Source: Gammaproteobacteria bacterium (GTDB lineage: Bacteria > Pseudomonadota > Gammaproteobacteria > Pseudomonadales > Pseudohongiellaceae). Taken from it: 64,000 nt of DNA. The position numbers were made by a program, and so were the translations under genes. Shown one piece after another: positions 2,530 to 64,000 of the stretch. The notes under the pieces are model-generated. The model did not search any database. It saw only the letters and a list, made by a program, of their open reading frames with translations, and had not been told where the DNA came from. Position 1 is the stretch's first letter; every line of letters starts with the position of its first letter. Where the stretch lies: contig JAURWS010000044.1 of the NCBI GenBank assembly GCA_030654835.1, forward strand, positions 4,964-68,963, written 5' to 3'.

Positions 2530-2985
2530 CTACGAGTGGTTTTGCTCCGAAGGCTGCGCAGGCTTCTGCTCCCGGCGATGCCCTCCGAAAAGGTTGATCC
2601 TGCGATCCGTTTTCCTGCCAAACAGCATCATCTGGCGATGAAAACTGTCCGCCTCGTCGGGTCGCAGCACCACATCGAGCAGGAAGCAGATGACGCTGAT
2701 CGGACTCATCACCACATCACGGATGGCGTCGAGAGCCAGCTTGATCTGAAAGCGCAACAGGTGACGCAGCGCCGTCCAGAAGCGAACTTTTTTTGTTGTT
2801 GGAGCCTGTTTTGTTGTTGGCAAAGCCTGTTCAGTTGTCAAAGCGCAGTCCTCATGGTTGAAGCCCGAGTATGTCTCAAGGTCAGGAAAATGGACATTCC
2901 CCTGCGGCGAAGCTGGCTCTGGTCTGGTTCGGTCGAACAGTCCCTGCCACGCAGCAGTAAGCCAGTGATTCAGTTCTGTAAGCAT
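2530..2985 (-). CDS. hypothetical small membrane protein
   Basis: 151-aa ORF with a hydrophobic helix (MSPISVICFLLDVVL) and a short PTTK repeat. It lies directly upstream of, and co-oriented with, the DCC remnant. Confidence 0.5.
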   Translation of the reverse strand: MLTELNHWLTAAWQGLFDRTRPEPASPQGNVHFPDLETYSGFNHEDCALTTEQALPTTKQAPTTKKVRFWTALRHLLRFQIKLALDAIRDVVMSPISVICFLLDVVLRPDEADSFHRQMMLFGRKTDRRINLFGGHRREQKPAQPSEQNHS

Positions 2986-3032
2986 GCTGACTTACAGGAT
3001 AGAATCGCCGCAGAGCTGCTGAGCACCGTGTA

Positions 3033-3782
3033 ATGCCTGCCTCTAACCAGCAGCCTGCCGACACCATGACACTAAGATCGCCAATTTCCTCGATAGCCAC
3101 ACTCAGAGCCTTTCCATTCCGGGTCGGCATTGCCTTGCTGGCATTGCTGCTCTGCACCGTGAGTTTTGCCGCCGACGAGCCGGGTAGTCCAATCAACCCG
3201 GTGCGCCCCAACTTCGCGGGCAGCTGGGAGAAGGACTTTGCGCGCAGCGACAAGTGGGAAGCCGAGCTGCAGCGCACCATCGACGAGCTCAACCGGGACA
3301 TGCAGCGCGGGGGCACCGATGCCGGTGACTACAGCATGAGCGGCTCGCGGCGCCGGGCCGGGAACATCATCGCCAATGCGCGCCTGGCCGAGCTCATCAG
3401 TCGCCAGACCATCATGCGGATCACGCAGACCGGGGGCGAGGTGCGCATCGAGCGTCAAGGTGACGCGGCATTGATCTGCAGCACCGCCAACAATGTCGAC
3501 GACACCTTCAAGAGCGTGCACGGCACCGAATACTGTGGCTGGGATCGCCAGCAGCTGGTGTTCGAAATCATGCTGGCCGAGGGCGTGATCATCGAGCATC
3601 GCTTCAGCCTCGACACCGATGGCCAGACCATCAGCATGCTCACCAGCGTGTACGATCGCAACTCCACACCCTTCAATCTGATTACCTTCTTCAATCGCTA
3701 TGAGGCGCCGCCCGAGGGCTACAACTGCGTGCAGACACTCAGCAGAGGGCAGGTTTGCAGCGCGGCGGATCCCCAGCCATGA
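3033..3782 (+). CDS. hypothetical exported protein
   Basis: 249-aa ORF with an N-terminal hydrophobic signal-like segment (VGIALLALLLCTVSFAADE). Its stop overlaps the next start (ATGA). The true start may be the internal M at about 3066. Confidence 0.6.
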   Translation: MPASNQQPADTMTLRSPISSIATLRAFPFRVGIALLALLLCTVSFAADEPGSPINPVRPNFAGSWEKDFARSDKWEAELQRTIDELNRDMQRGGTDAGDYSMSGSRRRAGNIIANARLAELISRQTIMRITQTGGEVRIERQGDAALICSTANNVDDTFKSVHGTEYCGWDRQQLVFEIMLAEGVIIEHRFSLDTDGQTISMLTSVYDRNSTPFNLITFFNRYEAPPEGYNCVQTLSRGQVCSAADPQP

Positions 3783-51609: not shown

Positions 51610-52404
51610 ATGAGGAATGTGCTCGCGAGAATTTTCTTCCTGCCCGCGAAAGCTCTGTCCGCTCTGAGCATAATCCTGCTTCCAATACTGGCCACGGCGC
51701 AACCGCTGGCTCCTGTCGACGACACCTTGCCACAGGACATTGCAGGCGAGTTTGCCTTCGTGCGTCTGGAATACGACAACTACTACAACGATGGTTTCGG
51801 CCGTGGCACCTGGCAAACAGATTTCCCCAACGCCGATTCCAACTTCCTGCGCGGCGTCTCCCGCCTGACCAATGTGCGCGTGATGAGCGAGCCAATTGTG
51901 CTGCGTTTCGATGACCGCCGGGTGTTCGACTACCCGTTCCTCTACGCCCTGGAGATGGGCCGCAGCGGTGGCCCGCTTTTCAATTCCATCGAGAAGGAAA
52001 ACATGCGCGAGTATCTGCTGCGCGGTGGTTTTCTATTGATCGATGATTTCTGGGGCACTCGGCAGTGGGACAGCTTCTACCGCGCCTTCACAGATGTGTT
52101 TCCGGATCGCGAGATCATCGAACTGCCGACGGACCACGAGGTCTTCCACAGCTATTACGACATCGACGGTCCGCAGATGATTCCCGTCATCGGCAACCCT
52201 GACAACTATCCGGAGCAGGATGTCGACCGCGCCTCCAACCACGCGATTCTGGATGACGACGGCCGGGTGATGGTGTTGATCAACTGGAATTCGGATATGG
52301 GCGACGGCTGGGAGCACACCTACGATCCGAGCTACCCGACCCGCCACGCCAATCTGGCTTATCAGCTGGGCATCAACTATCTGATCTATTCACTGACGCA
52401 CTGA
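51610..52404 (+). CDS. DUF4159 domain protein (exported)
   Basis: Signal-like N-terminus, then FAFVRLEYD..WQTDFPNAD..YPFLY..GGFLLIDDFWG.., the pattern I recall for DUF4159. Confidence 0.7.
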   Translation: MRNVLARIFFLPAKALSALSIILLPILATAQPLAPVDDTLPQDIAGEFAFVRLEYDNYYNDGFGRGTWQTDFPNADSNFLRGVSRLTNVRVMSEPIVLRFDDRRVFDYPFLYALEMGRSGGPLFNSIEKENMREYLLRGGFLLIDDFWGTRQWDSFYRAFTDVFPDREIIELPTDHEVFHSYYDIDGPQMIPVIGNPDNYPEQDVDRASNHAILDDDGRVMVLINWNSDMGDGWEHTYDPSYPTRHANLAYQLGINYLIYSLTH

Positions 52405-52426: not shown

Positions 52427-53395
52427 TCATTGTGCACGCATGGCGGCACAGTAGTCTTCGGTGGTGACAGCGGGCGTGAACCACAGATAGTCGTAGGGCG
52501 CTGTCGCGGAAAACGCCTCAGTGTAATCCGCAGGCACATCCGACTCCGGGCTCACCTCCATGAACCCCAGCGTGACGATGTCCTCCTCCGCCGTGGCGGG
52601 CATATCCACCAGCCCGGCGGCCAGGTAGTTGGGCACTCCCAGATCACGGCGCACATGGTAATTGCCTGCGATCAGCACGCGCTTGCCAGCCGACTCCTGC
52701 GCGGCCAGCAGGCTACGCGCCATGCTGGCATCCCGGCTCTGCTGCACCCGCACCATCGCGGGGAATTGACTGGCTGGCAGCATGCCGCAATGGCTCTCGT
52801 CGATATCCTTGTTGAGCTGCTCCATCTGCACCGCATCCATCACCGCTGCAACCTCGGCATCGAGTTCACTTCCGTAAACCGTCATCATCTCGTCGCGGCT
52901 GATGTTGCCAGCCTGCACTGGTACGCCCGCACTCAACAGATCGGTCAGCACCGGGCCATAGAAATTCCAGTCCCAGCCCTCTGCGTCCCACTGCAGATGC
53001 TCTTGCAACGCCTGCGCGGATCTCAAATCCACACCGCTGAAATCATCCACCAGCGCCTGCTGACTACTGTCCAGCATCTCGAAACTGACCACGCCGAGCG
53101 TTCCTTCCGCCAGCATGCCCTGCAGGAGCGTCCTGCGCAGACGGTGATGATCAGGATTGTCGTGCTTCTCACCCAGCAGCAGGAAACGCTTGCCGGACAA
53201 TGCCAGCTGCATCTCCTCGGCGGAGATGAAACGTTGATCGCTGGCGCGCCAGATGCGGCCCACCAGCGGGTGATCCTGATGCAGCGGGGATAGCCAGCCA
53301 GATTCGGTTTGCGTGGAGGAGGAAGGAGACAAGCCCGCACAACCAGACAGAGCGAGGAGGGTGAGGCTCAATAGCAGGCGTCGGGACAAGGGCAT
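52427..53395 (-). CDS. ChaN-family lipoprotein
   Basis: Lipobox LALSGC and the motif FLLLGEKHDNPDHH typical of ChaN/PF04187-like proteins. Confidence 0.7.
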   Translation of the reverse strand: MPLSRRLLLSLTLLALSGCAGLSPSSSTQTESGWLSPLHQDHPLVGRIWRASDQRFISAEEMQLALSGKRFLLLGEKHDNPDHHRLRRTLLQGMLAEGTLGVVSFEMLDSSQQALVDDFSGVDLRSAQALQEHLQWDAEGWDWNFYGPVLTDLLSAGVPVQAGNISRDEMMTVYGSELDAEVAAVMDAVQMEQLNKDIDESHCGMLPASQFPAMVRVQQSRDASMARSLLAAQESAGKRVLIAGNYHVRRDLGVPNYLAAGLVDMPATAEEDIVTLGFMEVSPESDVPADYTEAFSATAPYDYLWFTPAVTTEDYCAAMRAQ

Positions 53396-53449: not shown

Positions 53450-53956
53450 CTAGTCCGGGTTCTTGGGATAATCGAATCGCAGCAGACGCCCCACGCCCGG
53501 CTGTAGATCAAACCAGTTTTCAACCGGCAACTGCAGAGCGACGAGGCCGCAGGTGGGGATATTGTCGATGCCCGCATGCGCCAGATCGTTGGCCAGATCA
53601 GTCAGCGCCGGGTTATGCGCCACCAGCATGGCGCTGCTCGCACTCTCGTCGAACAGGGCGATCAGTTGCTGCAGTTTGGGGCTGCCAGCGAGGTAAATCT
53701 GTCGATTCTGCACGATGCGCTCGGGGTCGATACCCAGCACCTCACAGAACAGCGTCGCGGTCGTGTAGGCGCGCAGGGCGGGACTGCTGACGATCAAATC
53801 GATCCTCTCCCCGCGCTCTTTCAGAAGTTCGACCAGGCGCTCAGCCATCTCGGGAGCATCATGGAAGCCGCGCTCATTCAGAGGGCGGTCGAAATCCTTG
53901 ACGTCGGGCGTCGCCCAGCTGGACTTGGCGTGACGCAATATATACAGAGTTTTCAT
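53450..53956 (-). CDS. histidine phosphatase family protein (SixA-like)
   Basis: MKTLYILRHAKSSW.. RHA catalytic motif. About 168 aa. Confidence 0.8.
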   Translation of the reverse strand: MKTLYILRHAKSSWATPDVKDFDRPLNERGFHDAPEMAERLVELLKERGERIDLIVSSPALRAYTTATLFCEVLGIDPERIVQNRQIYLAGSPKLQQLIALFDESASSAMLVAHNPALTDLANDLAHAGIDNIPTCGLVALQLPVENWFDLQPGVGRLLRFDYPKNPD

Positions 53957-54136
53957 AGCAGTGCTTTCGTTAATGGTATTGCGGTGGCTGGTGCTTCTTC
54001 AGGCCCAGGCATTTTACGTCATAAGCAGCGGGCACGAAATGAAAAGCGTCTTCGTGTCGGCGGCTGCCATGAGGAAATAGTTCTACCAAAAAAAATCCCA
54101 CAGCTGCCACAACAACTGCGGGAAAAAGAGCGGAGA

Positions 54137-54200
54137 GTGCCCTGCTAAAAAAGTGCCCTGCCCAAAAGGTGTCCTGCTCAAAGAGAGCACTACCCAAAAC
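54137..54200. repeat. four tandem 16-bp repeats
   Basis: gtgccctgctaaaaaa / gtgccctgcccaaaag / gtgtcctgctcaaaga / gagcactacccaaaac, head-to-tail in an intergenic region. Confidence 0.8.
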
Positions 54201-54273
54201 AAACAAGGAGTGTGGTGCGGAAGAGAGCAGGCTGCCGGCCCGGGCACGGCAGCTGCGTGTCAGGAAATCTACA

Positions 54274-55851
54274 TCAGGCGCTGGCCGACTCGGCACGCAC
54301 GCGCTGATCCAGCTCGGCAAGCGCCACGTGCGCCGCCTGCATGGCGCTTTCCATCCATGCCGTGTGCTTGCTGACCTGATCGCCGATCAGCCAGTAGCGG
54401 CCGTTGACGGAGTGCTGCAGGGTGCTGAATATCTGCTCCTCCTCCGGCGTCACGACATTCCAGCGTGCGGAGCAGCCGAGCATGTGGTTCATACGGTGCC
54501 AGGCGATGGTCACACCCTTCTCGACCATGCTGCGGTAATTCGAATGCACCTTCTCACCTTGAACAATCATTGCCTCAATGCGCTGTTCATGAGTCATGCG
54601 GGTGAAGGCCATGCCATTGCCATAGTCGTAAGCGGCAAGCACCACGCCCTTGGCCTTGTGAATGCCGTGCGGCGGGTACCAGATCTGACGGATCGGCTGA
54701 TTGGTCCAACTGATGCCGCCGTAGATGCCTTCCTTCTCCCAGAAGCGCTCTTTCCCCTGGAACGCGCCCTTGTAAGCGGTGCCTCGGCGGATGTACTTCA
54801 TCGCCTGGGTGTACTCGGTAGGCAGGTTGTTCGGGATGCCATTCATGAAGTGGCTGGGAATGGAGTTGAAGCAATAGTCGGCCTCGATGAGCTGACGCTG
54901 CCCGTCCTGCTGATATTCCACCGACACGCCATCATCGCGCAGGTTCAGCGACAACACCTGTGCCTTGTACTTGATCCTGGAGTCCAGCTGACGGGCAAAA
55001 CCTGCGGGAATCCTGTCCATGCCACCGACAGGCTGCATCAACATCGGGCCTGTTTCGCCTTCATTGTCGCTGATCACCTGGCGGACGGCATTCGCGCGCA
55101 GCAGGTTGCGAACGTCGATCATTTCCTTCTGCACCGTGTGAGTGACATAGTTGCCCGAGGCATAACCGGCGCGGTTGCTGCCCGTGTAGCGTCCCTCCGC
55201 ATTGAGGTCACCGAAGGCATGGATCATCTGCAGCACCAATTCCGCCTCTTCATCGGTAAAGGGCTTGTCGAGCTCAACCTCGGACATGGCCTTGTTCATC
55301 AGCTCTGCCATGAAGCCGCGCACGTTGGTGGTGAGCTCGGCATTGCGGATGGGCTTGCCACCCATAATATTGTCGTCCTGAATCCAGGCCATCTTGTTTT
55401 CGTTGATGAACAGCTCCAGGTCCACCCCCAGCTCTTTGCAGTAGTGCAGGACGTTGGTGTGCGTGCTGGGAATGCGGGCCGCACCGGCATTGAAGTACAT
55501 GTGCGGTTCATCGTCGAACTGGCAATACTGAGGGTTGCCGATCTCATCGATCAGGGTGCCGGCACGGACGGTGAAGACACGGCCACCGGCACGATGGGAA
55601 GACTCCAGCACGGTGCAGTCGTAACCCGCCTTGGTGAGTTCGTAAGCCACCGTCAGCCCGGAGATACCGGCACCGAGAATGACTGCTTTGCGATTCTGAT
55701 TGCTCAAACGCAACAATTCGGGAGCCGACGCGGAAGCGCTGGAGGGGATCATGCCAAGCGCGCTGGTAATACCGATGACGGCAGCCGTGCCGCCAGTAGC
55801 GGCCAGCAGATTCAGAAACTCACGACGGGAAACGGGATTTGACACTTGCAT
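54274..55851 (-). CDS. Tat-exported flavin amine oxidase family protein
   Basis: Twin-arginine signal SRREFLNLLAATGGTAAVIG. FAD dinucleotide fold VILGAGISGLTVAYEL..VLESSHRAGGR. Confidence 0.85.
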   Translation of the reverse strand: MQVSNPVSRREFLNLLAATGGTAAVIGITSALGMIPSSASASAPELLRLSNQNRKAVILGAGISGLTVAYELTKAGYDCTVLESSHRAGGRVFTVRAGTLIDEIGNPQYCQFDDEPHMYFNAGAARIPSTHTNVLHYCKELGVDLELFINENKMAWIQDDNIMGGKPIRNAELTTNVRGFMAELMNKAMSEVELDKPFTDEEAELVLQMIHAFGDLNAEGRYTGSNRAGYASGNYVTHTVQKEMIDVRNLLRANAVRQVISDNEGETGPMLMQPVGGMDRIPAGFARQLDSRIKYKAQVLSLNLRDDGVSVEYQQDGQRQLIEADYCFNSIPSHFMNGIPNNLPTEYTQAMKYIRRGTAYKGAFQGKERFWEKEGIYGGISWTNQPIRQIWYPPHGIHKAKGVVLAAYDYGNGMAFTRMTHEQRIEAMIVQGEKVHSNYRSMVEKGVTIAWHRMNHMLGCSARWNVVTPEEEQIFSTLQHSVNGRYWLIGDQVSKHTAWMESAMQAAHVALAELDQRVRAESASA

Positions 55852-55930
55852 GATCCTCTTTGACTATTGGTGCTGAATACCCTCTTCAATCCAGGGTGTG
55901 AAGACGAGTGAATTATTGCGATCGAGGCCG

Positions 55931-55966
55931 GGAAAGTCCTCCCAAAATCCTTCTGAAAACCTCCTA
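55931..55966 (-). promoter_or_regulatory. conserved box A upstream of the amine oxidase gene
   Basis: In gene orientation it reads taGGAGGttttcaGAAGGattttgGGAGGac. Three pentamers are spaced 11 bp apart, and the box is near-identical to box B. Confidence 0.55.
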
Positions 55967-56092
55967 AAGAATGGCTCTCGGCCTCGGGAGGATACTTTGC
56001 GCCACTTTGCCCCCCTCCCTTGACCTCTCCAACGTTCTGATATCTACTTGAGGCCGATTTCCAGCAAATATGCTCGATCATTTTCAACCCGG

Positions 56093-58186
56093 ATGAGACA
56101 GCCAGTGGCCTCGGACAAGCTAAACAGAATAAAGATCGGAGATTGGGAGGCATCGCTCACTACTTGCACCCTGATTCAGGGCGGCACCGAGGTGAAAGTG
56201 ACCCCCCGCAGCATGGACGTTCTCCATTACCTTGCAGAACAGGCAGGCGAGGTGGTCAGTCACGAGGAATTGCTCAATCGCTTCTGGCAGGGTTCGTTTC
56301 CATCCGATCATGCCGTCCACAAGGCCATCGCGGAACTGCGTAGCGCCCTCGGGGACGATGCTCACAATCCTACTTATATAAGGACAATCCCCAAGCGCGG
56401 CTACTCGCTGATCGCCGAGGTAGTGGTGGCCACTCCCATCACAGCTCCGCAAGCGGTTTCCGAGAAAAACCCGGCGGGGGAAGTCACCCAGGTCTCTCCA
56501 TTGAAGCTGCGCTTCAGCGCACTGCTGGACAAACGTATCATGGCCGCCGGGGCGGCCGCAGCCATCTTCCTGTCCGTGCTCATGTGGCCTGGCCAGCAGG
56601 TGTCCAGCGGCAAGGACGAGGTCGTGCGCCTCGCCGTACTGCCCTTCGTGGACCTTGAACCAAGTGCCGATAACAAATTCGTAACGGACGGACTGCGCGA
56701 ATCACTGGTGCATGGCCTTTCAAAACTCAGCCACCTGGAGGTCTTGTCCCCCTCACGCGGGCTCGATGGGGCGGAAGACAATCGTTCTGCGGAACGGGCC
56801 ATCGAACGCGCCCAGACCCTGAACGCCGATCATGTGTTGCAGGGCAGCGTGCAGTCGGCCGAGGGACGCCTGCGCGTGACGGTCCAGCTCATCCGCGCCA
56901 GTGATGGTCTTCATCAATATTCCGACCAATTTGATTTCCCGATAGAAGATCTATTTGGCGTGCAGGACCAAATCGTCTCCAACGTGGTCAGCGCCCTGAG
57001 CATTCACCTCGATGAAGAAGAGCGTTCGCAGATGCTCGACTGGGGCACCACCAACGCACTGGCCTACGAGAAATTCCTGCGCGGAGAGTTCTACTACAAC
57101 CAGTTCAGCCCTGCCGACTTCCAGCGCGCTATCGACTATCACCTCGCCGCCATTGAACTGGACCCCGAATTCCTCAACGCCTACCACGGCGCTGCCACGG
57201 CCGCCAACAACCTGGCGGTGTACAGCAGTGATGCCAGGATAGAGGAGCTGAGCCTGCTGATCGCCAACATTCACCGCGAAGTCTCGCGCATTGCGCCAGA
57301 CAGTCAGGTGCTAAGGTCTCTCAATGAAATACGTCTGCGCATGGGCGGCAACAACCAGATTCAGCAGGAAATGCAGATGCGCGAGCAGATTCTCACCGGC
57401 AATCCGCCGGAGTTCGCAGTCGCCCACTACGCGCTGTTCCTGATTGGCGCAAGGCTGTATGACGAGGCCAGCAGACTGCTCGACGCCGCCGGCGAAGTCG
57501 GCCCCTTCGAGATTTCTCCCGACGAAGTCTGGAGCTACCGCAACAACATTCAACCACCGCGCGCCATGCTGCTCGGTGCCAAAGGTCAGCTGCAGGAGCG
57601 CCCCTATCACGTCGGTTTCCTGGGAACGGTAGCAACCAACTCTGCACTGACTGGTGATTTCCGCCAAGCCGAGACCTATCTGAACCGTCAACGTGAAGTG
57701 GATACCGACGGCATCCTCGCTCATTACAGCGAGACCATCATCGGCTTCCTGAGCGGCAAAATCTCATTAGGCAATGAGGCCTACCAGGACATCATGAGCC
57801 GGGAAGGGGATTTCGCCTTCAACAAGGGCGCTCTCAGTTTCATGCTGGGTGATGTCGAGACGGGCATCACTCTGTGGCGCAACCTGACGGCGACCCAGAA
57901 GCGCCGGTTGTTCAACGTCACGCACGGCGCGGAGAAATACTTTCCGGTCTCCGTGCTGGAAGACCCCCGTTACCGGGCCCTGCTGGAAGAGCTGGGGCTT
58001 GGCAAGAGCTGGCAGCGTCAGCTCATGGAGGGGATCATGGCGACGGAGTCTGTCACCGGCGTAGGGCTGAGCGAAAAGTCTCGTCAGGCCTACGAGAGCA
58101 ACACCTTTCTTTCCCGCAATAACCTCTGGACCCCCGAACAGTGGTCCGAGCTGGATTCCCGCAAGCTGGCCATCCTGCAGCACTGA
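56093..58186 (+). CDS. membrane-anchored CadC/ToxR-like winged-helix regulator with periplasmic TPR-like domain
   Basis: OmpR/PhoB-type DNA-binding domain (..VKVTPRSMDVLHYL..IRTIPKRGYSL..). One TM helix (AAGAAAAIFLSVLMW). Then ..LAVLPFVDLE.. and a long helical-repeat region. The start is at 56093 (ATG) or 56048 (TTG). Confidence 0.8.
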   Translation: MRQPVASDKLNRIKIGDWEASLTTCTLIQGGTEVKVTPRSMDVLHYLAEQAGEVVSHEELLNRFWQGSFPSDHAVHKAIAELRSALGDDAHNPTYIRTIPKRGYSLIAEVVVATPITAPQAVSEKNPAGEVTQVSPLKLRFSALLDKRIMAAGAAAAIFLSVLMWPGQQVSSGKDEVVRLAVLPFVDLEPSADNKFVTDGLRESLVHGLSKLSHLEVLSPSRGLDGAEDNRSAERAIERAQTLNADHVLQGSVQSAEGRLRVTVQLIRASDGLHQYSDQFDFPIEDLFGVQDQIVSNVVSALSIHLDEEERSQMLDWGTTNALAYEKFLRGEFYYNQFSPADFQRAIDYHLAAIELDPEFLNAYHGAATAANNLAVYSSDARIEELSLLIANIHREVSRIAPDSQVLRSLNEIRLRMGGNNQIQQEMQMREQILTGNPPEFAVAHYALFLIGARLYDEASRLLDAAGEVGPFEISPDEVWSYRNNIQPPRAMLLGAKGQLQERPYHVGFLGTVATNSALTGDFRQAETYLNRQREVDTDGILAHYSETIIGFLSGKISLGNEAYQDIMSREGDFAFNKGALSFMLGDVETGITLWRNLTATQKRRLFNVTHGAEKYFPVSVLEDPRYRALLEELGLGKSWQRQLMEGIMATESVTGVGLSEKSRQAYESNTFLSRNNLWTPEQWSELDSRKLAILQH

Positions 58187-58298
58187 TCTTCAAGCTCTTG
58201 ACCCCAGGCTCCTTCTCAATTTCTGCATTTCATGATTCAGCAAGGCGCATAGCGCCCAACCCCTCTGCACGCCCGTGAATTGCCCCCTTCCAGAGTTA

Positions 58299-58335
58299 TA
58301 GGAGGTATTCAGAAGGTTTTGGGGAGGACTTCCCT
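58299..58335 (+). promoter_or_regulatory. conserved box B upstream of the TonB-dependent receptor gene
   Basis: taGGAGGtattcaGAAGGttttggGGAGGacttccct, with pentamers at 58301, 58312 and 58323 (11-bp phasing). Confidence 0.55.
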
Positions 58336-58508
58336 GCCCCCTCTCTCGATAATCGAAGGCGCTATCTGGTTGACTCACTTCACGACCCACTGGAGTTTAC
58401 AAAGCCCCTGCAAGTACCACCTTGCGTAGAAGGGCTGTCGTACAGGACTGAAGTAATTTAGAAACCATCCTTCGCAAATCTAGAAAATGAAGACAAGGGA
58501 ATAGAACT

Positions 58509-61052
58509 ATGAAAATTTCAAAACTGCTGACAATGTCGTCGGTTGCTGCCCTGCTGGGCTCAATCGCTGCCACCACCGCTCCCGTTGCCATGGCGCAAGC
58601 CCAGGGTCAGGATGCGGACATCGAAGAAGTTGTGGTAACCGGTTCACGCCGCGCACCCAGAACAGCGCTCGACTCCGCAGCTCCAGTCGACGTGTTCTCA
58701 GCAACAGACTTCCAGGATCAAGGCACGGCCGATATCAACGACCTGCTGCGCAACCTGGTGCCGACCTTCAACGTGGACACTCAGGACATCAACGACTCCA
58801 ACAGTCTGGTACGCCCCGCGACCCTGCGCGGCCTGCCCGCTGACGACACGCTGGTGCTCGTGAACGGCAAGCGCCGTCACCGCTCCGCAGCGGTGCAATT
58901 CGGTCGCGAGGGAACCCACTTCCCGGACATCGCCCAGATTCCTCCGATTGCTCTGCGTCAGGTCGAAGTGCTGCGAGACGGCTCTGCCGCACAGTACGGC
59001 TCCGACGCCATCGCGGGCGTGATCAACTTCATGCTCAAGGAGAACAGTGAAGGCCTGTCCATCGAAACCAAGACCGGCATGTACACCGAGACCGATGACG
59101 GTCAATTGAACTACATGGCCGCCAACCTGGGTCTGCCGCTGGGCGAAACCGGCTTTGCCAGCCTAAGCATGGACATGACCAACCAAAAGCGCAGCGACCG
59201 CAGCATTCAGCGCGGTGACGCACAGGCACTGATCAACGCTGGCAACAAAGCGGTACGTGTCAATGCCCAGCACCAGGGTCTGCCCGATACCGAGATCGTC
59301 AACCTATTCGCCAACATCGGCGTTGATCTGGGCGGCGACCAGACGCTGTACTCCTTCGGCGGCTACAGCGAGAAGGACGTTGAACTCGGCTTCTTCTACC
59401 GCAACCCGGAAAACCGCAGTGGGGTATTCACCCGTGGTTCCAATCAGCTTTTCATTGACACGACGCCCGGCACAGGCACGACCTGCCCGACCATCCCGCG
59501 CGGCGTCAACCCAGTGACCAAAGTCACCAGCTCTGTGGCAGCTGCCCAGGCAGGCCTGGCAGATCCGCAATGCTTTTCCTTCCTTGAGTGGTTCCCCGGT
59601 GGTTACACCCCAGACTTCGGCGGCCAGGTGCGCGACATGTCCAATGCCACCGGCATCAAGGGCGAGCTGGATGACGGCACGACGTATGACCTGAGCATGG
59701 GCAATGGCTTCTCGGAGATCACCTACTTCATCTCCAACACCACCAACCCATCCATGGGACCAGATTCTCCCACCAGCTTCTCGCCCGGTATCTACACCAC
59801 CATCGAGAACAACCTCAACCTGGACCTTTCCAAGGCTTTCGAAGTGGGTATGTACTCACCGCTCAACGTTGCCTACGGTCTGGAATGGCGTCGTGAGATA
59901 TTCAAAGTGGCTTCCAAGGACCAGGACTCCTACCGCGTTGGCCCCTATGCCAACCTGGGCATGGGCGTAGGCTCCGACGGCTTCCAGGGTTTCGGTCCTG
60001 ATCAGCAGGGCACCTGGGATCGCAAGAACTGGAGTATCTATGCCGACCTGGAAGTGGATGCCACCGAAAGACTGTTGCTCGGCGCTGCCATCCGCTACGA
60101 AGACTTCTACAACACCTTCGGCGACACGACCAATGGCAAGCTGACAGCACGCTATGCGCTGACAGACACGACCAATCTCCGCAGCACGATCAGCACCGGC
60201 TTCCGTGCTCCGTCACCCGGCCAGGCCAACATCTCCAACATCAGCACTGGTGTTGTGGACAGTATCCCTGTCACCCAGGGCCAGATTCCTCCCACCAACC
60301 CGATATCACAGCTGTTTGGTGGTACGGAGCTGACTCCGGAGAAATCCCGCAACTTCAGCATCGGTGTCGCCACCGAAATCGGCGGCCTGGACCTGACACT
60401 GGACTACTACCGCATCGAACTGCGTGACCGCATCCTGAACTCTGCAACCTTCGACATTACCGAAGCCATTGCACAGCAACTGGAAGCCTCCGGTATCTCT
60501 GGCGCACGCAGCATTGTGTCCTTCAACTACTACACGAACGACATGTCCACCACCAACGAGGGTGTTGAACTGGTTGGCTCGTATGCGATGGACTGGGACG
60601 ACTTCGGTCGCACCGAACTGGCGGCCTCATGGGCCTGGACCAAGCAGCAACTGGACAGCTTCACGCCAGGCCTGTTAACCCGCGCCAACGTCGCCGATCT
60701 GGAAAAAGGAATCCCTGCCAACCGTGGCAACTTCCGAGTCAACCACACGATCACTGACTGGCGCTTCACTCTGCAAGCCAACTACTACGACGAGTACTTC
60801 TCAGTCCCCGCCAACGCCAACCCAGCGCGCGATTACTGGGTAGGTTCGGAGGTGATCTTCGGTGGCGAGGCTGCTTACACGTTCCGTGATCGTTACACCT
60901 TCATTGTCGGTGCGGATAACATCCTCAACACCATGCCGGAGAAGATTCGTCCAATAGATATCAACTCAGGCACCAGCAACAAGTACGTCACGAACGCTGG
61001 GTTCGGCCCGAATGGTGCCTTCTGGTACGCACGCTTCCAGTTCAGTATGTAA
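58509..61052 (+). CDS. TonB-dependent receptor
   Basis: Signal peptide ..TAPVAMAQA, DIEEVVVTGSRR, plug ..LVNGKRR.., an 847-aa barrel and an aromatic C-terminus. Confidence 0.88.
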   Translation: MKISKLLTMSSVAALLGSIAATTAPVAMAQAQGQDADIEEVVVTGSRRAPRTALDSAAPVDVFSATDFQDQGTADINDLLRNLVPTFNVDTQDINDSNSLVRPATLRGLPADDTLVLVNGKRRHRSAAVQFGREGTHFPDIAQIPPIALRQVEVLRDGSAAQYGSDAIAGVINFMLKENSEGLSIETKTGMYTETDDGQLNYMAANLGLPLGETGFASLSMDMTNQKRSDRSIQRGDAQALINAGNKAVRVNAQHQGLPDTEIVNLFANIGVDLGGDQTLYSFGGYSEKDVELGFFYRNPENRSGVFTRGSNQLFIDTTPGTGTTCPTIPRGVNPVTKVTSSVAAAQAGLADPQCFSFLEWFPGGYTPDFGGQVRDMSNATGIKGELDDGTTYDLSMGNGFSEITYFISNTTNPSMGPDSPTSFSPGIYTTIENNLNLDLSKAFEVGMYSPLNVAYGLEWRREIFKVASKDQDSYRVGPYANLGMGVGSDGFQGFGPDQQGTWDRKNWSIYADLEVDATERLLLGAAIRYEDFYNTFGDTTNGKLTARYALTDTTNLRSTISTGFRAPSPGQANISNISTGVVDSIPVTQGQIPPTNPISQLFGGTELTPEKSRNFSIGVATEIGGLDLTLDYYRIELRDRILNSATFDITEAIAQQLEASGISGARSIVSFNYYTNDMSTTNEGVELVGSYAMDWDDFGRTELAASWAWTKQQLDSFTPGLLTRANVADLEKGIPANRGNFRVNHTITDWRFTLQANYYDEYFSVPANANPARDYWVGSEVIFGGEAAYTFRDRYTFIVGADNILNTMPEKIRPIDINSGTSNKYVTNAGFGPNGAFWYARFQFSM

Positions 61053-61079
61053 GCAAGAAAGGATAGTCAATCAAAGAGA

Positions 61080-61107
61080 GGGGTGTCGTTCGCGGCACCC
61101 CTTTTTT
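61080..61107 (+). terminator. rho-independent terminator
   Basis: ggggtgtcg - TTCG tetraloop - cggcacccc, followed by T6. It lies 28 nt after the receptor stop. Confidence 0.85.
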
Positions 61108-61125
61108 ACCCGGAGAACACATCTT

Positions 61126-61767
61126 ATGACGCGCAATGTTTTACCCATGCTGCGGGCCATTGCCGCAACAGCGGTAGTCTCAACCACAGTTTCAACCTCC
61201 ACATGGGCAGCCGTACCCCATGAGCCGGTCAACCACCGGTTCTGCTTCACCTGTCACGGCACCGATGGCGTTGGCAGCGAGGGCATCCAGGCCCCTCGTC
61301 TGGCTGGCATGGAGCCATGGTACCTGCAACGGCAGCTCGAACTGTTCCGTGCCGGGGGACGCGGCAAGCACGCGGAAGATATTCAAGGCATGGAGATGCA
61401 GCCAATGGCCGCAATCCTGACCGACGAGAATATCGCCGACATCATCGACTGGGCCGCCACCTGGGAGTACAAACCCACGGTTCCGACACTGACAACCGGC
61501 AATGCAGCCAACGGACGCCAGCTCTATCAGGCCTGCGCGACTTGCCACGGCGCGGATGCGCAAGGCAATGAGGCGATGAATGCGCCAGCACTGCGCGGCC
61601 AGAATGACTGGTACCTCGTCACTCAGCTGAAAAACTTCAAGGCCGGTTTCCGTGGCACCGACCCGCTCGACACGTTCGGTGCGCCGATGCGCGCGATGGC
61701 GGCAGGCCTTGCCGACGAGCAGGCAATCAAAGACGTCGTGAGCTATATCAATACGCTGGGACGTTAA
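61126..61767 (+). CDS. dihaem cytochrome c (c4-like), exported
   Basis: Signal peptide, two CxxCH motifs (CFTCHG, CATCHG) and two Met-containing distal segments. Confidence 0.8.
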   Translation: MTRNVLPMLRAIAATAVVSTTVSTSTWAAVPHEPVNHRFCFTCHGTDGVGSEGIQAPRLAGMEPWYLQRQLELFRAGGRGKHAEDIQGMEMQPMAAILTDENIADIIDWAATWEYKPTVPTLTTGNAANGRQLYQACATCHGADAQGNEAMNAPALRGQNDWYLVTQLKNFKAGFRGTDPLDTFGAPMRAMAAGLADEQAIKDVVSYINTLGR

Positions 61768-61794
61768 TTTTACACAACCAAGAGGACACCAATT

Positions 61795-62271
61795 ATGTCG
61801 AAGCTCATCAAGTTATTGACTCTCAGCTCTGCCCTGCTGGCAGGGTCATTCGCCATGACAGCCAGCGCTCAGGAAATTCAGCGCGAGGGCGAAGGCAGAC
61901 TCTTCTACAGCACCATCAGCATTCCCGCCGGTGCGGAGACCTTGTACCTGAGTGGCGTTGGCGCTTCACCACAAGCCGATGGCACCTACGGTGACATGGA
62001 GCAGCAGACCAACAATACCTTCGAGAAGTTCAAAGCCACACTGGAAGCCCAGGGCTGGGCCATGTCCGACATCGTCCAGGTCCGCGTGTTTGGCGTGGCC
62101 GGTGCCGATGGCAAGTTTGATTTCGCTGGCTTCAATCGCGGCTACGAAAAATTCTTCGGCACCGAAGCCAATCCCATGAAGCCAGTGCGCTCTGTCGTAC
62201 AGATCGCCGGGCTGGTGGTAGAGGGCTGGCTGGTCGAGATCGAGATCCGCGCCGCCCGCGTTCCCAAATAA
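61795..62271 (+). CDS. RidA/YjgF-family protein with Sec signal peptide
   Basis: MSKLIKLLTLSSALLAGSFAMTASAQE.. signal peptide, followed by a YjgF/UK114-like core ending ..EGWLVEIEIRA. Confidence 0.75.
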   Translation: MSKLIKLLTLSSALLAGSFAMTASAQEIQREGEGRLFYSTISIPAGAETLYLSGVGASPQADGTYGDMEQQTNNTFEKFKATLEAQGWAMSDIVQVRVFGVAGADGKFDFAGFNRGYEKFFGTEANPMKPVRSVVQIAGLVVEGWLVEIEIRAARVPK

Positions 62272-62500
62272 CCCCTGCGGGAGCGTACCCCAAACTGACC
62301 CATCGACTGCCTTCCAGCACCGATTGTCAGGCGATCTCTGTCCTGAGCCTATCTCCCCCAGAACGGCCCCAGGGCAGAGATCGCACCCTTCTCTCCATGA
62401 AGTTTGCCGTCAAAGTGAAGAATCAGCCCCAGGTGCCGATAGGGAGAGAGACGACCGATACCGAAGCCTCAGCGCCTCCTCTCACAGGACCGTTCCAATT

Positions 62501-64000
62501 ATGACCCCTGCCGTACGTTTCTTCTGGATTGTCAGCCTCGCCTGGTTGCCCCTGAGTTATTACCTGCTGATGGACGCCACCGACTGGATCGTCATGCCCG
62601 CCGCGCTGGGTGAACACCCGGCGCTGCTGACGCTGTTCCTGTTCGCGGCGGTCTACGTCTCCATCGGAATGCGCGATCTGTATTCCAGCGAGAGCAACCT
62701 GCGTCGCAACTACCCGGTGTTTGCGAATCTGCGCTATCTGTTCGAGAGTATTCGCCCCGAGATCCGCCAGTACTTCATCGCCAGCAATCTGGAAGAGGCA
62801 CCATTCAACCGTGAAGCGCGCGACCTCATCTATCGCCGCGCCAAGAACGTCAACGACACGCTGCCGTTCGGCACAGAACAGAACCTGATGGAGCAGGGCT
62901 ACCTCTCCGTGTATCACTCCATCAAGGCCGCCATCGTTCCAGACCACAAGTTCCGCGTGCAGTTCGGCGGACCACAATGCAGCAAGCCGTACAACGCCTC
63001 GTTGCTGAACATCTCCGGCATGAGCTTCGGCGCCCTCAGCGGCCACGCCATCAGCGCTCTCAACAAGGGCGCAGCCATAGGCAAGTTCGCGCACAACACT
63101 GGCGAAGGCAGCATCAGCACCTATCACCGTGAACATGGTGGCGACCTGATCTGGCAGATCGGCACCGGCTACTTCGGCTGCCGCAATCTGGATGGCACGT
63201 TCAACGACACGGCGTTCGCCAGCAATGCCAGCGATGACCAAGTGAAGATGATTGAGATCAAGCTCTCGCAGGGCGCCAAGCCCTCTCACGGCGGCGTGCT
63301 GCCCGGCGCCAAGGTCACCAAGGAAATTGCCTTGATCCGTCTGGTCGAAGTCGGCAAGACAGTCACCTCACCTGCCAATCATCCCGAGTTCGACAGCCCT
63401 GTCGGCTTGCTGCAGTTCGTGCAGCGCCTGCGCGACCTTAGCGGCGGCAAACCGACCGGTTTCAAACTGTGCATTGGCAAGAAGAGCGAATTCATGAGCA
63501 TCGTCAAGGCGATGCTCAGCACCGGCATTCTCCCCGACTTCATCACCGTCGACGGTGCCGAGGGTGGCACCGGTGCCGCTCCCATGGAGTTCTCCAACCG
63601 GCTGGGACTGCCGTGCCTGGAGGCGACCTACTTCGTGCATCAGGTGCTCACCGGCGCAGGCCTGCGCGACAACATCCGCATCATCAGCGCGGGCAAGACC
63701 GCGAGCGGCTTCGACATGCTCAGCAAGATCGCGGCCGGTGCCGACACGGTCAATGCCGCGCGCTCCATGATGCTGGCGCTCGGCTGCGTGCAGTCCAAGT
63801 CCTGCAATACCAACAAGTGTCCTACGGGCATCGCCACCCAGGACCCGGTGCGCGGCAAGGCCGTCGACATCGAAGACAAGTCGAAGCGCGTCGCCAATTA
63901 CCAGCACGGCACCGTCCATGCCTTCCTCGAACTGTGCGGCGCGATGGGCTACGACGACCCGGCAGACCTCAAGCCAAGCGACCTCTTCCAGCGCATCGAC
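62501..64000 (+). CDS. FMN-binding glutamate synthase family protein (3' end beyond the window)
   Basis: Absent from the ORF track because it has no stop in the window. My translation from the ATG at 62501 reads MTPAVRFFWIVSLAWL.. with ..KLSQGAKPSHGGVLPG.. and ..DGAEGGTGAAP.., and the frame stays open to base 64000. Confidence 0.85.
   Translation, partial: MTPAVRFFWIVSLAWLPLSYYLLMDATDWIVMPAALGEHPALLTLFLFAAVYVSIGMRDLYSSESNLRRNYPVFANLRYLFESIRPEIRQYFIASNLEEAPFNREARDLIYRRAKNVNDTLPFGTEQNLMEQGYLSVYHSIKAAIVPDHKFRVQFGGPQCSKPYNASLLNISGMSFGALSGHAISALNKGAAIGKFAHNTGEGSISTYHREHGGDLIWQIGTGYFGCRNLDGTFNDTAFASNASDDQVKMIEIKLSQGAKPSHGGVLPGAKVTKEIALIRLVEVGKTVTSPANHPEFDSPVGLLQFVQRLRDLSGGKPTGFKLCIGKKSEFMSIVKAMLSTGILPDFITVDGAEGGTGAAPMEFSNRLGLPCLEATYFVHQVLTGAGLRDNIRIISAGKTASGFDMLSKIAAGADTVNAARSMMLALGCVQSKSCNTNKCPTGIATQDPVRGKAVDIEDKSKRVANYQHGTVHAFLELCGAMGYDDPADLKPSDLFQRID

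Follow-up and report, generated by a model that had tools for sequence, protein, structure and literature searches.

Five genes in a 64,000-nt stretch of DNA from a member of the Pseudohongiellaceae (Gammaproteobacteria; assembly GCA_030654835.1, contig JAURWS010000044.1, positions 4,964-68,963; hereafter the window) encode a flavin amine oxidoreductase, a membrane-bound regulator, a TonB-dependent receptor, an exported dihaem cytochrome c and an exported protein of the Rid family. We consider it fairly probable that they form a regulon for the periplasmic oxidative deamination of an alpha-amino acid, or of a compound with a free alpha-amino-acid group. What is shown is which genes are present, that they bear export signals, that they are linked and that they share a promoter element; the functional steps are inferences.

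The five-gene set

An earlier note, made from the letters of the window alone, had named these five genes as a candidate module for amine or amino-acid oxidation. All five were confirmed, each with a significant family match, and the span 54274-62271 is bounded exactly by the stop codons of the oxidase and Rid genes. The genes and a terminator-like structure beside them are as follows.

54274-55851 (-), flavin amine oxidoreductase, 525 amino acids (aa), PF01593 (Amino_oxidase)
56048-58186 (+), open reading frame (ORF) of a CadC/ToxR-like one-component membrane regulator, PF00486 (E 8.5e-19)
58509..61052 (+), TonB-dependent outer-membrane receptor, 847 aa, Plug PF07715 and barrel PF00593
61126..61767 (+), exported dihaem cytochrome c of the c4 type, two CxxCH motifs, signal-peptide-like N-terminus
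61795..62271 (+), exported Rid3-subfamily protein, predicted imine deaminase, 158 aa, PF01042 (E 1.7e-17)
54096..54123 (-), intrinsic-terminator-like hairpin 3' of the oxidase gene, 12-pair stem followed by T8

The receptor and cytochrome genes are separated by 73 bp and the cytochrome and Rid genes by 27 bp, with no predicted terminator in either gap. The strong terminator after the oxidase gene implied that this gene is transcribed on its own.

An oxidase related to L-amino acid oxidases

The Amino_oxidase domain covered residues 63-507 of the oxidase (E 2e-32), and NAD_binding_8, representing the Rossmann motif that binds flavin adenine dinucleotide (FAD), was also matched. Signal calls, here and below, were made from motif, hydropathy and conservation. 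The N-terminus carries the twin-arginine motif SRREFLN, in which R9 and R10 were invariant in 15 homologues. The RRxF motif was present in 79 of the 80 orthologous oxidases described below, the sole exception being an over-extended ORF. The export signals claimed in the earlier note were thus supported for the oxidase, and also for the Rid protein and the cytochrome.

The L-amino acid oxidase of Rhodococcus opacus (roLAAO, 2jae) matched the oxidase over its full length with an E value of 6e-75, and snake-venom and ancestral L-amino acid oxidases matched at 1e-25 to 1e-33. Putrescine and monoamine oxidases reached only 1e-7 or weaker, restricted to the FAD-binding N-terminus. R126, Y408, K361 and W499, all invariant among the 15 homologues, aligned to positions R83, Y370, K322 and W466 of the 2jae chain. 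We take R83 and Y370 to be the carboxylate-binding Arg84 and Tyr371 of roLAAO. A Foldseek search with a low-confidence AlphaFold model also placed 2jae at the top and gave the same ranking as the sequence search; the top 35 ranks were all L-amino-acid, glutamate or lysine oxidases. No nicotine enzyme was present among the 60 solved-relative matches listed for the oxidase. Because the likeness to roLAAO extends over the full length and the substrate-binding residues are kept, an amino acid is favoured over a simple amine as the substrate, which is likely to be an alpha-amino acid or to bear a free alpha-amino-acid group.

An exported protein of the Rid3 subfamily

The earlier note had assigned the product of the last gene to the RidA family and had regarded its export as an oddity, RidA proteins being normally cytoplasmic. 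The Rid fold and the export were borne out, but the subfamily was not. The best solved relatives were PSPTO_3006 (E 1.5e-22) and PFL_1385 (E 9e-22; PDB 9bka and 9bkc for the pair), whereas RidA-type structures gave 2.5e-8 or weaker. By these matches the protein is a member of Rid3 and not of RidA, the subfamily labels being those of PMC5619798. It shares about 35-40% identity over the domain with the two Rid3 proteins, as well as their catalytic Arg and Glu. These residues are R132 in KPVRS, equivalent to Arg105 of RidA, and E148 in a VEIE motif, and across 26 diverse Rid3 sequences the conservation of the matching columns was at least 90%.

The signal peptide, MSKLIKLLTLSSALLAGSFAMTASA, ends in FAMTASA and is followed by QE, with cleavage predicted after ASA25. 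Every Rid orthologue examined had a basic N-terminus and a hydrophobic core followed by an AxA site or a lipobox. As these sequences vary while their character is kept, they behave as real signal peptides. When the wider Rid3-like clade was represented by clusters at 50% identity, 84 representatives were of single-domain size, and 73 of these passed a crude signal-peptide test, which E. coli RidA fails. Judged by these predictions, export is the norm in the Rid3 subfamily and the oddity holds only against RidA proper. The term 'signal peptide' is not used in the Rid3 literature that we found.

Several variants of the Rid3 gene were observed. Four loci with the gene order of the window (L007, L008, L009 and L013) carry a tandem pair of exported Rid3 genes after the cytochrome gene, at 2712-3188 and 3586-4062 in L007. 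In Pseudohongiella nitratireducens SCS-49 (L033, 3068-4246(-)) a single ORF of 392 aa encodes both the dihaem cytochrome and the Rid protein and keeps the Rid signal peptide internally; a genuine fusion, the loss of a stop codon or an error in sequencing could account for this. A sub-group with gene order B, defined below (L046, L050, L051, L057, L060 and L070), has a lipobox (e.g. LLAACG or LSACSG) in place of the AxA site, together with a long linker, which suggests a membrane-anchored lipoprotein form. Three tandem Rid domains were found in distant relatives of about 410-650 aa (P0250-P0252, P0257, P0265-P0267 and others).

The receptor and the cytochrome

The Plug and barrel domains of the receptor agree with the make-up of TonB-dependent receptors, namely a plug, a 22-strand barrel and a signal peptide, and an N-terminal signalling extension is absent. 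In the search of solved structures its resemblance to CirA, PirA, FepA and BtuB was confined to the plug, and no substrate-specific NCBIfam model scored above its cut-off. Since the likeness to siderophore and B12 receptors is at the level of the plug only, no substrate can be inferred from it. Linkage of its orthologues to the oxidase gene was seen in three arrangements.

The cytochrome has its CxxCH motifs, CFTCH and CATCH, at residues 40 and 137, within two Cytochrom_C stretches. Its best solved relative was cytochrome c4 (1etp, E 1.9e-14), and two class-I haem domains in about 20 kDa agree with the c4 type. Two CxxCH motifs were found in all 72 cytochrome orthologues. The possibility that the protein is a peroxidase was dropped, as it is a 21-kDa c4-type protein without a peroxidase domain.

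Conservation through three gene orders

One genome per species was scanned for related loci, which gave 80 loci whose oxidases were 60-98% identical to that of the window. They came mostly from Pseudohongiellaceae, with SAR86 in addition. The closest, L001 from a freshwater gammaproteobacterial metagenome-assembled genome (MAG), was fully syntenic with an oxidase 98% identical. The five-gene set is strongly conserved, in agreement with the co-conservation expected in the earlier note: the cytochrome gene was found in 72 of the 72 loci that were not cut off, the other eight being cut by a contig end on the operon side, and the exported Rid gene in 66 of the 69 that extend far enough past the cytochrome gene. 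The remaining three (L036, L043 and L079) lack a Rid gene, although the oxidase and cytochrome genes are there; Rid3 is therefore not strictly obligatory. A MaoC-like hotdog protein is encoded near the modules of L036 and L043, and a 370-aa membrane protein in L079.

Three gene orders were distinguished. In order A, that of the window, the oxidase gene is divergent from the regulator, receptor, cytochrome and Rid genes, and the regulator gene was divergent from the oxidase gene in 33 of 33 such loci that reach the cytochrome gene. In order B, the oxidase, cytochrome and Rid genes lie on one strand, and a gene for a dicarboxylate/amino-acid symporter of the SDF family usually separates the last two. 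In order C, found in cultured Microbulbifer and Haliea, the regulator gene is divergent from the receptor, oxidase, cytochrome and Rid genes. The MAG nearest to the window holds both an A locus (L001) and a B locus (L051). The linkage persists through rearranged orders while the flanking genes are lost beyond close relatives, and this points to functional linkage, not to an inherited order.

The genes that follow Rid3 in type-B loci vary. They encode a signal-bearing amidase in L041 (14405-16336), a DUF6498 membrane protein in L044 and L059, and a 2OG-Fe(II) oxygenase in L080, L083 and L084. These genes may hint at different substrates in different lineages.

A shared promoter element and a CadC/ToxR-like regulator

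The two intergenic regions were aligned from 14 type-A loci. Each contained one invariant block with diverged flanks, both blocks being copies of one 32-bp element, and the following features were recognized there.

55934-55965 (-), operator-like element 1, 32 bp, AGGAGGTTTTCAGAAGGATTTTGGGAGGACTT, facing the oxidase gene
55912..55917 (-), -10-like hexamer AATAAT of the putative oxidase promoter, 16 bp downstream of element 1
58300-58331 (+), operator-like element 2, 32 bp, AGGAGGTATTCAGAAGGTTTTGGGGAGGACTT, facing the receptor gene
58348..58353 (+), -10-like hexamer GATAAT, invariant, 16 bp downstream of element 2, for the receptor-cytochrome-Rid operon
56020..56048 (+), putative conserved sigma-70-like promoter of the regulator gene, TTGACC-17 bp-TCTACT, from invariant alignment blocks

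Each element contains three AG[GA]AGGT-like heptamers at a spacing of 11 bp, and in both cases an [A/G]ATAAT hexamer comes exactly 16 bp further downstream. The -10-like region of the oxidase gene lies in the conserved block GAATTATT of the intergenic alignment. The pattern of the element had two exact matches in the 64-kb window, with none expected by chance. Most type-A loci with room on both sides had the element before both the oxidase and the receptor genes. In distant Pseudohongiella loci the element, allowing up to 4 mismatches, was mostly found before the receptor gene only, and in the four type-A loci without a receptor it stood directly before the cytochrome gene. The earlier note had treated the genes as possibly co-transcribed; the oxidase gene proved to be a separate unit, but the shared element ties it to the receptor-cytochrome-Rid operon.

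The geometry is similar to that of promoters that depend on an activator and have tandem winged-helix binding sites where the -35 box would be, and direct-repeat operators are typical of the OmpR/PhoB/ToxR type. The element is probably the operator of the regulator encoded between the two sites. No family was matched in an Rfam scan of 53900-62600; hence the conserved element is not a described RNA motif. A reading of the GATAAT near the receptor gene as part of a Fur box was dropped, because it is a single hexamer and the same fixed 16-bp spacing occurs at both promoters; this was judged from the spacing, without a formal Fur-box scan.

The regulator has an N-terminal winged helix that matched the DNA-binding domain of CadC (5ju7, E 3e-18) and also ToxR (8b4b). 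PF00486 was its only Pfam match, and a receiver domain is absent. Hydropathy indicated one hydrophobic segment near residues 149-167, beyond which about 530 C-terminal residues, including a TPR-like stretch, would lie in the periplasm. By this predicted topology, with a winged helix, a single membrane segment and a periplasmic domain, the protein is CadC/ToxR-like. It is not equivalent to CadC itself: the CadC model was its best NCBIfam match, at 108 bits against a cut-off of 400 and over the N-terminal domain only, and the TPR-bearing periplasmic domain is unrelated to the sensor domains of CadC or ToxR. The true start codon is likely ATG 56093 or GTG 56105, downstream of the ORF start, in view of the conserved promoter and the alignment.

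Distant Rid3 loci

A metagenome scan was seeded with Rid3 proteins about 40% identical to that of the window (a 7-sequence alignment) and gave 80 further loci, largely from soil, rhizosphere and freshwater. Where at least 2.5 kb of upstream sequence was available, an oxidase-family gene lay within 6 kb in 36 of 47 loci, nearly always directly upstream of Rid3 on the same strand. The RR motif was present in 41 of 42 uncut oxidase ORFs across the 80 loci. The co-occurrence of exported Rid with Tat-type oxidases, which the earlier note had suggested, was therefore strongly positive among both the related and the distant loci. These counts are evidence that exported Rid3 proteins and Tat-exported enzymes of L-amino-acid-oxidase type make up a general pair, as far as sequence can tell. 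A TonB-dependent receptor gene was present in 18 of the 47 loci, and an ORF with a CxxCH motif lay directly between the oxidase and Rid genes in about 14; all four of the intervening ORFs that were sampled were monohaem cytochromes c by Pfam.

We tentatively extend the proposal, with somewhat less than even confidence, to the subfamily as a whole: Rid3 may be the dedicated periplasmic imino-acid deaminase that works with Tat-exported, L-amino-acid-oxidase-type flavoenzymes, in a widespread and hitherto uncharacterised 'periplasmic amino-acid respiration' that uses c-type cytochromes and often TonB-dependent receptors.

Comparison with known systems

The coupling of an exported oxidase with an exported Rid protein, as put forward in the earlier note, was supported, and the concept is not new in view of four previous studies (PMC5053998, PMC4433059, PMC12224317, PMC10805672). 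To this the present analysis adds the receptor and the CadC/ToxR-like regulator, a predicted operator common to both transcription units, a cytochrome of the c4 type, rearranged orders of the genes and the general link to Rid3.

The nearest precedent is the lao-cccA-ridA operon (GDI2456-2454) of Gluconacetobacter diazotrophicus PAL5, reported in 2016, for whose three products the authors proposed cooperation on the periplasmic side; mutants of this operon and of cytochrome maturation lose the conversion of tryptophan to indole-3-pyruvate and the production of indole-3-acetic acid (IAA) (PMC5053998). Compared by description, the window has the same linkage of a roLAAO-related oxidase with a Tat signal, a c-type cytochrome and a Rid protein. 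The published gene order was found in gene-order-B relatives and in soil and rhizosphere loci, the latter with a monohaem cytochrome. Unlike that operon, the oxidase gene of the window is a separate divergent unit with its own terminator, the cytochrome is a dihaem protein of the c4 type, and the receptor and the CadC/ToxR-like regulator with its operator belong to the set; a role in IAA formation is not implied for the window module.

Stull et al. reported in 2025 that Tat-signal flavin amine oxidoreductases with an operonic cytochrome c are cytochrome-dependent dehydrogenases, an adjacent cytochrome gene being a better predictor than the Tat signal (PMC12224317). As in the NicA2/Pnao-CycN systems, a Tat-exported FAD amine oxidoreductase here has a Sec-exported cytochrome c nearby (PMC12224317, PMC9396064), and their logic of periplasmic oxidation with electrons passed into the respiratory chain matches the prediction made here. 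The enzymes studied there come from NicA2-related clades and act on nicotine-type amines or on unknown substrates, and a Rid protein, a receptor and a regulator are not described there. The window cytochrome further differs in having two haems, and its gene lies about 5 kb from the oxidase gene in divergent orientation with a shared operator, whereas the two genes are adjacent in orders B and C. By analogy with these enzymes, the oxidase is probably a cytochrome-c-dependent L-amino-acid dehydrogenase.

For the Rid step, Hodge-Hanson and Downs showed that PSPTO_3006 and PFL_1385 hydrolyse in vitro the imines formed by L-amino-acid oxidase and the iminoarginine formed by DauA (PMC5619798). According to Niehaus et al., genes for RidA, and at times for Rid3, occur in clusters with those for FAD amine oxidases; in 2015 these authors described the in vivo substrates of Rid1-3 as unknown (PMC4433059). 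Chlamydomonas reinhardtii pairs a periplasmic LAO1 with a RidA-like LAO2 (PMC10805672), and thus likewise combines an extracytoplasmic L-amino-acid oxidase with a Rid protein to obtain ammonium from external amino acids. That system is eukaryotic, however, reduces O2 to H2O2, and has neither a cytochrome partner nor an outer-membrane import step. A Caulobacter Fur paper was set aside as a precedent, for it concerns a gene of the D-amino acid oxidase family. Our literature search found no characterised cytochrome-dependent L-amino-acid oxidase or receptor-linked cluster beyond the 2016 paper (PMC5053998).

Proposed mechanism and alternatives

In the proposed pathway, the TonB-dependent receptor would carry the substrate across the outer membrane and the oxidase would turn it into an imino acid, which exported Rid3 would hydrolyse to a 2-oxo acid and ammonium. 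The reduced flavin would be re-oxidised by the c4-type cytochrome rather than by O2, an acceptor preferred here on the strength of the precedents, and the cytochrome would hand the electrons to a terminal oxidase. The cell would thereby gain nitrogen and respiratory energy and avoid H2O2. The regulator would sense a periplasmic signal and activate both promoters through the three AGGAGGT-like repeats that replace the -35 box. In gene order B, the SDF symporter may take up the 2-oxo acid or the amino acid.

Several points weigh against this proposal. The functional steps, including the binding of the regulator to the element, are inferred from sequence. The structure model of the oxidase, built on a 15-sequence alignment, had a low predicted local distance difference test score (pLDDT 64). 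roLAAO, the closest solved relative, uses O2 as a genuine oxidase. In the window the cytochrome gene lies in a separate transcription unit, at the distance from the oxidase gene given above, and many distant oxidase-Rid3 pairs have no intervening cytochrome gene, so that dependence on a cytochrome is not universal. Free amino acids normally pass through porins, which makes a TonB-dependent receptor an odd partner; the receptor may point to a bulkier or different substrate, or to uptake at very low concentrations in an oligotroph.

Some of these points would also fit an enzyme that, like roLAAO and Chlamydomonas LAO1, is a true oxidase and forms H2O2 from O2, leaving the cytochrome some other task, for instance as a general respiratory shuttle or in dealing with peroxide. 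Besides the O2-using relative and the distant pairs without a cytochrome, some cytochrome-less Tat-exported flavin amine oxidoreductases are real periplasmic oxidases (PMC12224317). We nevertheless regard this alternative as unlikely: the cytochrome gene was present in every informative locus and directly follows the oxidase gene in orders B and C, one operator is common to the cytochrome operon and the oxidase gene, and an adjacent cytochrome c is the best predictor of dehydrogenase function (PMC12224317). The protein itself is a shuttle of the c4 type, with no match to cytochrome c peroxidase.

The same core could instead produce a signal, converting tryptophan to indole-3-pyruvate for auxin as proposed for the lao cluster of G. 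diazotrophicus, whose IAA production needs the same three-gene core (PMC5053998); Chlamydomonas LAO1 also makes indole-3-pyruvate (PMC10805672). A high-affinity outer-membrane importer, joined in order B by the SDF symporter, fits nutrient capture better, the module is spread over free-living aquatic and soil bacteria, and the sequence gives no indication of tryptophan specificity. We accordingly find auxin formation quite improbable.

Very little weight is given to a substrate of another kind, for example an alkaloid, polyamine or siderophore-like compound, entering through the receptor and oxidised by an enzyme acting like NicA2 or Pnao. The receptor does suggest a scarce or bulky ligand, and NicA2 and Pnao are Tat-exported flavoenzymes that work with a cytochrome c on amines other than amino acids. 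Against this, Arg126 and Tyr408, aligned to the carboxylate-binding residues of roLAAO, are invariant, L-amino-acid oxidases are far stronger sequence matches than putrescine or monoamine oxidases and occupy the top 35 Foldseek ranks, and the 60 sequence matches listed include no nicotine enzyme.

That the genes are merely neighbours without a functional link, as the opposite strand of the window oxidase gene and the syntenic flanking genes of close relatives might suggest, was effectively refuted by the comparative data, since the linkage outlasts three gene orders, different bacterial families and distant soil lineages in which the flanks are lost, and one operator is common to two transcription units.

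If periplasmic deamination coupled to the cytochrome holds, many oligotrophic water and soil bacteria would harvest amino-acid nitrogen and respiratory electrons in the periplasm, before any transport into the cytoplasm, and the genome-based reading of amino-acid turnover and ammonium regeneration would change; at present the annotation of such genes reads 'monoamine oxidase', 'FAD-dependent oxidoreductase' or 'Rid family hydrolase'. The module would then offer an in vivo role for Rid3 and a testable case of a cytochrome-dependent L-amino-acid dehydrogenase. Cytochrome-dependent dehydrogenases, being independent of O2 and free of peroxide, are attractive for biosensors and biocatalysis. If the wider proposal for the subfamily is also true, aquatic and soil Proteobacteria would free amino-acid nitrogen outside the cytoplasm and pass the electrons to the respiratory chain without H2O2, Rid3 would gain a general physiological role, and the revision from oxidase to dehydrogenase would reach the L-amino-acid-oxidase branch. 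Cultured carriers (Microbulbifer, Haliea, Pseudohongiella spirulinae and P. nitratireducens), together with the predicted operator and regulator, open the system to experiment.

Neighbouring genes

A gene for a membrane-anchored flavin mononucleotide (FMN) protein with a glutamate-synthase domain (PF01645, E 1e-79) occupies 62501-64000(+) and runs past the end of the window. Its start lies 230 bp beyond the Rid gene, no terminator being predicted in the interval, and it stays near the module in type-A loci, including those of Pseudohongiella, where it is inverted with a MaoC-like gene in between (L033, L036 and L085).

On the oxidase side lie genes for a SixA-like histidine phosphatase (53450-53956, -), a ChaN-like haem-binding lipoprotein (52427-53395, -) and a DUF4159 protein (51610-52404, +). 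These were syntenic only in close relatives (L001-L026) and probably do not belong to the module.

On the strand opposite the oxidase gene there is an ORF of 557 aa (54169-55842(+)), and the regulator and receptor genes likewise have several antisense ORFs, of 80-140 aa. All of these lack family support and look like the shadow ORFs that are common in GC-rich DNA, the G+C content here being about 58%.

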